This document shows, in pieces, positions 3,193 to 3,583 of a stretch of DNA of 4,550 bases. Numbering within the stretch: position 1 is the stretch's first letter; the number at the start of each line of letters is the position of its first letter. The translations under genes and the position numbers were made by a program. Under the pieces are notes generated by a model. The model was not told the origin of the DNA. It did not search any database and saw nothing but the letters and a program-made list of their open reading frames with translations. The DNA comes from a virus (lineage: Duplodnaviria; Heunggongvirae; Uroviricota; Caudoviricetes). Location: the IMG/VR virus record IMGVR_UViG_2698536372_000011; one strand, given 5' to 3'.

Positions 3193-3583
3193 ATGTTATT
3201 GTCTTCCTTTTTTTTGAATGGTGCGCGTATTTTACATACATGAGTTTGTAATACAAGGTGCGTAATCAATATGATGTTTTATAATTGCGTGAGACAATTG
3301 ATTTATTCGTTTTTTATTGCGGTTTTTATTATCTTTTAATGTAACGGTGTTTTTATTAAGTGTGTTTGCGTGGTGTTTTATGTTTTTTATAATTTTTATT
3401 TTATTAAATTTAAAAGCATTAGTAATGGCTATTCTATATAGCAATATAAGAACTGTTACAAAAAAAGGGGGGGCAATTACAGGTAGTTATGGATGATGAG
3501 TGAAACAGATATTGGAGAACCGGGGAATGAATGATGTCTGAGTCTTATATATCAGAACTCCTTCGCTGTCGCTGGGGGCTCCT
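3193..3583. promoter_or_regulatory. AT-rich divergent intergenic region; presumed promoter region of lpxR (minus) and possibly of the Q-like gene (plus)
   Basis: About 390 bp, very AT-rich with many T/A tracts and recurring motifs (ttgcg[tg] repeated four times; g(t)gtttttatta twice). Contains an A7G7 homopolymer pair at 3460-3473. Exact -35/-10 elements are not confidently assignable by eye. Confidence 0.4.

Follow-up and report, generated by a model that had tools for sequence, protein, structure and literature searches.

LpxR is an outer-membrane lipid A 3'-O-deacylase. The enzyme takes the 3'-acyloxyacyl group off lipid A and weakens recognition by innate immunity. Here we examined the lpxR locus in a 4550 nt stretch of DNA, the window, from a virus assigned to Caudoviricetes (IMG/VR record IMGVR_UViG_2698536372_000011), and in particular the AT-rich sequence upstream of lpxR, in which a run of seven A residues is followed by a run of seven G residues (A7G7). 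As an element, this region has been described before. A prophage of Escherichia coli O26 RM10386 matches the window at 100% identity, and positions 3150–3720 are 99.5% identical to prophage Sp3 of the O157:H7 strain Sakai, where the region upstream of lpxR (ECs0814 / Z0955 / E2348C_0684) is the same element, down to its flanking genes and the A7G7 run. The window carries the O26-type haplotype, which is distinguished from Sakai by a T5 at 3393–3397 (T4 in Sakai) and two single nucleotide polymorphisms (SNPs) and leaves the structure unchanged.

The module is also approximately 99% identical to part of phage 434 (OL657226), a viable classical lambdoid phage with the order Q' fragment, lpxR, YlcG-like gene and Q82-like gene. 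The phage 434 spacer is 99.1% identical to that in the window and is annotated with ribosome-binding sites only, with no promoter marked. Phage 434 differs in having six G residues in the run (G6), and its left neighbours are ninG and ninI, where the window has roi, rusA and ninH. The uninterrupted empty site is represented by rus-orf45-Q82 of phage 82 (X92588) and by DLP12-type loci, in which ylcG and Q share approximately 82–86% DNA identity with those in the window (approximately 85% for the orf45-Q region of phage 82) and the last rusA codons correspond to window positions 3517–3530. These loci differ in that they lack lpxR, the AT-rich spacer and A7G7, and in them ylcG overlaps both rusA and Q by ATGA.

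Regulation of the locus has been described. Ler activates lpxR 5-fold in enterohaemorrhagic E. coli (EHEC) and 21–35-fold in enteropathogenic E. coli (EPEC), where the neighbouring Q homologue E2348C_0685 is also up 2-fold with Ler (PMC3891560; Bingle et al. 2014). The lpxR locus, also called SfpA-like, has been placed in the modulon of the enterocyte effacement locus (LEE) and Ler (PMC9263587), and a passage in a review that cites Ogawa et al. 2018 (Cell Microbiol e12806) gives both Pch and Ler as needed for lpxR activation (PMC6393859). Salmonella lpxR is H-NS-repressed and directly activated by HilD (PMC5122947). The Salmonella system involves the same enzyme family, with a type III secretion master regulator opposing H-NS at an AT-rich promoter, and a gene that is chromosomal. 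Activation by Ler and Pch represents the usual way in which AT-rich foreign DNA is released from H-NS silencing.

The other systems that the locus resembles are phase-variable promoters, among them the poly-G of Neisseria meningitidis porA and the poly-C of opc, which lie in the -35/-10 spacer, and the poly-C of Bordetella fim. The runs of these systems are typically 9–14 nt long, are located in the spacer of a mapped promoter or in an activator site, and undergo switching in culture. The lpxR run is like those of porA, opc and fim in being a G/C homopolymer upstream of an outer-membrane protein gene with slippage-made length differences between isolates. However, it is only 6–9 nt long, lies approximately 270 bp from the gene and outside any convincing promoter spacer, and is fixed within clades.

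From the comparisons that follow, we put the probability at about 60% that this is the known lpxR insert, the distal upstream flank of which carries a slippage-prone, probably near-neutral G-run in a control region of the H-NS/Ler type.

The lpxR insert and its upstream spacer

The insert extends from 2089 to 3516 (approximately 1.43 kb) and consists of a 3' flank with a hairpin, lpxR and a 324 bp 5' flank. Its GC content is 27.5–39%, compared with 46–48% in the sequences on either side, and lpxR itself (2233–3192, - strand; 319 aa; Pfam PF09982 LpxR, 137 bits; lpxR (ECs_0814) in Sakai) is on the strand opposite to the surrounding phage operon and is transcribed leftward, against the phage early operon. 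In the 618–620 complete E. coli genomes that contain it, approximately 11% of 5426, the insert was found in one single context.

On the left, the junction lies in an N-terminal fragment of a lambda-type Q gene (2018–2088, + strand), a pseudogene that corresponds to a partial antitermination protein in RefSeq and to the Q N-terminal fragment of phage 434. The fragment is 20 codons long (MRLESVAKFHSPKSPMMSDS...) and directly follows ninH, and genomes without lpxR match the window only up to 2085–2088, inside this fragment. The fragment shows that the lpxR-ylcG-Q82 block replaced the rest of a lambda-type Q by recombination. On the right, homology to rusA-ylcG-Q loci begins at 3517, and positions 3517–3530 (+ strand) hold the last rusA codons and stop together with the ylcG Shine-Dalgarno sequence. 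In empty-site loci that lack lpxR (phage 82, DLP12-type loci and many other phages), rusA, ylcG and Q are contiguous, with overlapping stop and start codons. With junctions at approximately 2088 and 3517, the unit 2089–3516 is identified as an AT-rich insert. It has the properties of a lambdoid-phage moron, namely an extra gene that lies between conserved phage genes, is absent in relatives and is distinct in GC content and orientation. The moron's own promoter is predicted only, and the literature documents that lysogens express the gene under Ler.

The true non-coding spacer is 3193–3530, made up of the lpxR 5' flank and the 14 nt rusA remnant, and contains no open reading frame (ORF) conserved across its indel variants. 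The original prediction, made from the window sequence, had treated all of 3193–3583 (approximately 390 bp) as spacer. That interval is too long, as it takes in part of a small ylcG-family ORF (3531–3653) that had been missed; Q starts at ATG 3668, and GTG 3584 is merely the first start codon of the open frame. The spacer is AT-rich, as had been noted, with a GC content of 29.3% (26–27.5% in 200 bp windows over 3201–3500), compared with 48% in the nin genes and 46% in Q. Read directly from the sequence, A7 occupies 3460–3466 and G7 3467–3473, exactly as given in the original prediction. The run is 268–281 bp upstream of where lpxR translation starts; the right junction of the insert lies 44 bp beyond it, and ylcG follows after 58 bp. 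It is the sole G/C run of at least 7 nt in the window; a run of this length arose in 8.3% of dinucleotide-preserving shuffles of the window and in 0.9% of shuffles of the spacer alone.

An AT-rich control region of the H-NS type, with phased and probably curved T/A tracts, had also been proposed. The control-region part of this proposal fits the published activation by Ler and Pch, and the spacer is as AT-rich (29.3% GC) as expected of an H-NS-silenced, Ler/Pch-activated region; this reading is essentially the published view. The phased or curved tracts were not found. There are 11 T-runs of at least 4 nt on the + strand of the spacer and only two such A-runs, the AA/TT spectral power at 10–11.5 bp is 0.53 (0.68 ± 0.33 in shuffles), indicating no helical phasing, and at periods of 10–13 bp the 11 T-tract centres favour no particular phase (Rayleigh P 0.23–0.77). 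The H-NS high-affinity motif TCGATAAATT has no match with two or fewer mismatches in the spacer. Neither this motif nor helically phased A-tracts are required for H-NS binding.

Recurring short motifs had been pointed out as well, and both are present, TTGCG[TG] three times on the + strand (3285, 3317 and 3366) and GTTTTTATTA twice (3322 and 3349). Their statistical weight is low. An exact 10 nt repeat was equalled or bettered in 36% of shuffles, which is chance level, and the three copies of TTGCG[TG] in the spacer, where 0.42 were expected (P approximately 0.004), concern a motif that was picked post hoc. Across the whole window this motif is not enriched (9 copies versus 6.4 ± 2.5).

For comparative footprinting of the spacer, the phage collection yielded no diverged homologue besides phage 434. 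The sole locus with LpxR from one genome-collection scan, in Citrobacter sp. ANG330 (LpxR 73% identical), has upstream DNA with no obvious resemblance to the spacer when judged by eye, and contains no A7G7.

Length alleles of the G-run

The G-run had been singled out as a slipped-strand mispairing site, and a comparison of its length across genomes had been suggested. When 91–93 nt queries with G6, G7 or G8 were used to search all complete E. coli genomes, with records of at least 99% identity that proved to be exact matches, the tract was found to be variable, with lengths from G6 to G9 among isolates. The run is thus a real slippage site, and invariance of its length, which had been named beforehand as counting against the proposal, was not seen. 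G7 was present in 435 of the 620 genomes with the locus, G6 in 91 and G8 in 68, and the remaining 26 had other forms; G9 was found in one O121 genome (RM8352). A second, unbiased sample of 59 further loci was obtained by pattern scans of two independent collections (IMG/VR and metagenome) and included 31 A7G7, 17 A7G6, five A7G8, five A6G6 and one A8G6. The adjacent A7 has a length of six in 5/59 loci and of eight in 1/59.

The alleles follow clades. The listed O111:H8 genomes have G8, O55:H7 and O145:H28 have G6, as do approximately 30 UK O157 genomes of the Z-series, and G7 is found in most O157, in most O26 and in E2348/69. As whole clades share one allele in these assemblies and the run is only 6–9 nt long, change appears to be slow, on the timescale of clonal diversification rather than that of rapid phase switching. 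However, three SNP haplotypes of the spacer each occur with more than one G length, indicating that the change has been recurrent. Mapped onto a neighbour-joining tree of the insert (43 SNP columns), the G-run required 13 Fitch parsimony steps (an upper estimate, discussed below), the T6 run at 3383–3388 six, the T8 run three and A7 two, while single SNP columns required one or two. The run-change excess is therefore approximately 13 steps for one run versus approximately 0.03 steps per nucleotide site. An excess of this order would be usual where a G7 run is carried by repair-proficient E. coli.

The spacer holds further variable runs. The T6 at 3383–3388 has five T residues in 11 loci, six in 40 and seven in four. 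The T8 at 3208–3215, which reads as A8 in the lpxR leader and immediately precedes the Shine-Dalgarno sequence AAGGAAG there, is rarely variable, with seven T residues in 4/55 unbiased loci and nine in strain FORC_042, and three T5 runs and another T6 are also variable. In these same assemblies, runs of seven within the lpxR coding sequence hardly ever change length. Variable spacer runs together with nearly invariant coding runs are the pattern expected of slippage mutations under weak selection. The fetched loci offered no non-coding G/C run as a control; the one other run in them is a G6 that does not vary and may be coding. In the fetched loci, one-base losses were seen in the lpxR runs at 2235–2241 and 3183–3189 (A7 or T7), in 2/56 and 1/56 loci. 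These would frameshift the gene and represent either pseudogenes or assembly errors.

No mention of G-run length polymorphism was found in the literature on the lpxR locus that was searched, from which Ogawa 2018 and Abe 2008 were absent, and the allele distribution appears to be new, though not surprising. What is gained is this population-level account of tract alleles and a corrected anatomy, including ylcG, the start of Q at 3668 and the insert boundaries.

Predicted promoters and alternative explanations

Promoter-like sequences in the spacer were sought on both strands with a promoter scan and a position-weight matrix. The top-scoring pair (8.9) is TTGCGT-16 nt-TATAAT (3366–3393, + strand), directed towards ylcG-Q with a predicted start at approximately 3400, so that A7G7 would lie in its leader. 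Its -10 hexamer is perfect, and the variable T6 lies between the hexamers, where T6 variants give spacers of 15, 16 and 17 nt. On the - strand, two predicted promoters each score 8.6. GTAACA-17 nt-TAGAAT (3431–3459) is directed towards lpxR with a start at approximately 3424 and would place the run, T7C7 on this strand, at approximately -36 to -49, whereas TTCACT-17 nt-TGTAAT (3476–3504) would start at approximately 3469, inside the C-run, and the run would be transcribed. None of the top pairs on either strand has A7G7 between its -35 and -10 hexamers. The only pair that brackets the run, TTGCCC-19-TCTTAT, scores 5.7, has an over-long spacer and lacks an A at -11. In total, promoter-like hexamers number 6 in the spacer and 7.4 ± 2.7 in shuffles, so there is no excess.

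Two further proposals fare poorly against these data. The first was that a change in run length would alter promoter spacing, for which a convincing sigma-70 pair spanning the run would be needed and none was found. The second was that the spacer is a divergent control region. As rusA, ylcG and Q overlap in loci without the insert, Q did not ancestrally depend on a promoter in the spacer.

In the reading that we favour, the insert sits between the truncated lambda-type Q fragment and a phage-82-type rusA'-ylcG-Q block in a lambdoid prophage, and lpxR is expressed from the prophage under Ler and Pch, a step that is taken from the literature. The G-run is a replication-slippage hotspot that has changed many times, far more often than any substitution in the insert, with each allele stably inherited within its clade. 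Such changes would probably be near-neutral mutational noise in weakly constrained non-coding DNA. The run would be no on/off phase switch; at most, a change would shift by 1 bp whatever lies upstream of the candidate lpxR promoter.

Several points weigh against this explanation. No other character of the insert is as homoplastic as the G-run. The tree is poorly resolved, so that the 13 steps are an upper estimate, and the haplotypes give a lower bound of approximately 3–6 events. The short T6 at 3383 varies more than the longer T8, and a purely length-driven neutral model predicts otherwise. The run is placed relative to predicted lpxR promoters, and the geometry of an activator or UP element can be sensitive to a 1 bp shift close to a promoter.

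The alternative that survives best is that the run tunes lpxR expression. The real lpxR promoter, for instance GTAACA-17-TAGAAT, would then lie directly downstream of the run, placing T7C7 in the UP-element or class I activator zone from -36 to -49. A change in length would rotate the upstream Ler, Pch or H-NS contacts by approximately 34 degrees per bp, and clades would inherit different levels of lpxR, hence of lipid A deacylation and of visibility to innate immunity. A promoter-like pair is indeed present directly downstream of the run on the lpxR strand, and a surface-modifying, Ler-regulated, virulence-associated gene belongs to a class that often has tuning repeats. The recurrent changes in the run (up to 13 parsimony steps) and the fixation of different alleles in EHEC clades also agree with tuning. 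However, promoter-like hexamers are no commoner than in shuffles and there are several equal-scoring candidates on both strands, the run is outside the core promoter, and only 44 bp of insert DNA lie beyond it. The excess over the substitution rate is of a size that G7 runs in repair-proficient E. coli would be expected to show, and other spacer runs vary as well. We therefore regard tuning of lpxR as possible but doubtful. In EHEC and EPEC, lpxR is co-regulated with the type III secretion system, and if G-run length does alter lpxR output, it would provide a simple, typeable marker of lineage differences in host visibility.

Less likely still is a role for the spacer in rightward control of ylcG-Q. 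Here, the promoter TTGCGT-16-TATAAT (start approximately 3400) would drive ylcG-Q in a repressed prophage after desilencing by Ler, T6 would set the spacer at 15, 16 or 17 nt, and A7G7, in a 130 nt leader, could affect RNA stability or ribosome loading. This pair has the highest score in the spacer and a perfect -10, its T6 is the second most variable run (6 steps), TTGCG[TG] is locally enriched, and the response of E2348C_0685 to Ler in EPEC points in the same direction. However, perfect -10 hexamers arise by chance in AT-rich DNA, the 2-fold change on arrays may be spill-over from desilencing, and ancestral read-through from rusA needs no promoter. Constitutive expression of Q from a prophage would, in addition, be harmful, and the leader RNA has no significant structure (z 0.32).

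A broader proposal, that the G-run and possibly the T6 at 3383–3388 are slow tuning knobs that generate heritable clade differences in lipid A 3'-O-deacylation or in Q, and that the alleles (G8 in O111, G6 in O55 and G7 in most O157 and O26) are adaptive, also seems unlikely to us.

Finally, it is very improbable that the run is truly invariant and that its length variation is a homopolymer sequencing or assembly artefact: many complete genomes are long-read assemblies prone to homopolymer errors, and the single G9 record and the rare lpxR frameshifts (T7 to T6 and A7 to A6) could be such errors, but Sakai (G7), O111 11128 (G8) and O55:H7 CB9615 (G6), which we take to be early Sanger-sequenced reference genomes, differ from one another, the alleles are consistent across dozens of genomes per clade and across independent collections, and equally long A/T runs in the lpxR coding sequence hardly change in the same assemblies.

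As the evidence stands, a slippage-prone and probably near-neutral G-run remains our preferred explanation. The spacer is a control region already known from a familiar phage module, and the run behaves as an ordinary mutational hotspot. Homopolymer variation alone should not be taken as phase variation.

Further readings of the run and spacer were tried and dropped. Positions 3459–3481 are 78% complementary to the lpxR ribosome-binding region at 3194–3216 and were considered as an anti-Shine-Dalgarno sequence, but the two do not pair with each other in the fold of the 311 nt leader, which is no better than shuffles (z 0.03), and inverted matches of similar length and complementarity (I1 and I3) occur in the same region. 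A structured + strand leader was dropped, its z of 0.32 being no better than shuffles. The sole ORF across the run (3317–3496) has a TTG start, no visible Shine-Dalgarno sequence and no family match, and T-run variants shift its frame in Sakai, 99-3311 and further strains. Breakage of this ORF also rules out an A-AAA-AAG frameshift site, and each of the three frames meets a stop codon no more than 31 nt past the run. An intrinsic terminator at the run was rejected because neither strand offers a complementary arm, and lambda CII-type TTGC-N6-TTGC sites because, on direct reading of the sequence, the spacing is wrong. No Rfam family matched the spacer at E ≤1.

Neighbouring genes and hairpins

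A strong 15 bp hairpin (2151–2185, - strand) separates lpxR from the Q fragment and begins approximately 48 nt 3' of the lpxR stop codon. Its folding energy on the - strand is -19.1 kcal/mol (z -7.1), and z is -3.0 on the + strand. A T-rich tail is present on the + strand only, and the U-tail on the lpxR strand is weak. Folding predictions suggest that the hairpin is likely to be the insert's terminator for lpxR transcripts, and it may also stop rightward early transcription unless this is antiterminated.

To the right of the spacer, the small ORF at 3531–3653 (+ strand; 40 aa) sits between the rusA remnant and Q and belongs to the ylcG family (NCBIfam NF033498, 48 bits versus a cut-off of 30). 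It is annotated in RefSeq (WP_032160865.1) and in phage 434, and corresponds to orf45 of phage 82 (X92588). The Q82-type late antiterminator gene Q follows at 3668–4357 (+ strand; 229 aa; Pfam PF06323, 306.8 bits; RefSeq WP_001097238.1), and the Pfam Phage_antiter_Q profile begins at residue 4 of the protein encoded from ATG 3668.

The ylcG ORF is wrapped in an imperfect RNA hairpin of approximately 33 bp (3517–3607). On the 5' arm (3517–3543) are what remains of the rusA stop, the ylcG Shine-Dalgarno sequence (GGGGAA) and the ATGATG starts, and the partner of this arm (3586–3607) falls within ylcG. For 13 loci, 97% of cells are paired, whereas sliding the partner gives approximately 45%; at two pairs, both sides have changed. 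Single-sequence z values are -2.0 for phage 82, -2.7 for E. coli 4/0 and -0.1 for the copy in the window. The hairpin may act as a gate on the translational coupling that runs from rusA through ylcG to Q, though at this low diversity the pairing pattern is only suggestive.

In 2 of the 59 fetched loci, lpxR, the spacer and ylcG are retained but a different Q sequence begins at approximately 3649. This switch represents a recombination breakpoint at the end of ylcG, and fits the '434B crossover' remark in the phage 434 record.

Downstream of Q, the segment 4341–4433 contains a promoter-like TTGCAA-17-TATACT followed by a hairpin and T-run at 4403–4433. A sub-threshold Rfam match to STnc240 covers 4364–4433 (28 bits versus a gathering score of 55). 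Judged by its sequence, this segment looks like a late promoter with a short terminated leader, the target of Q.

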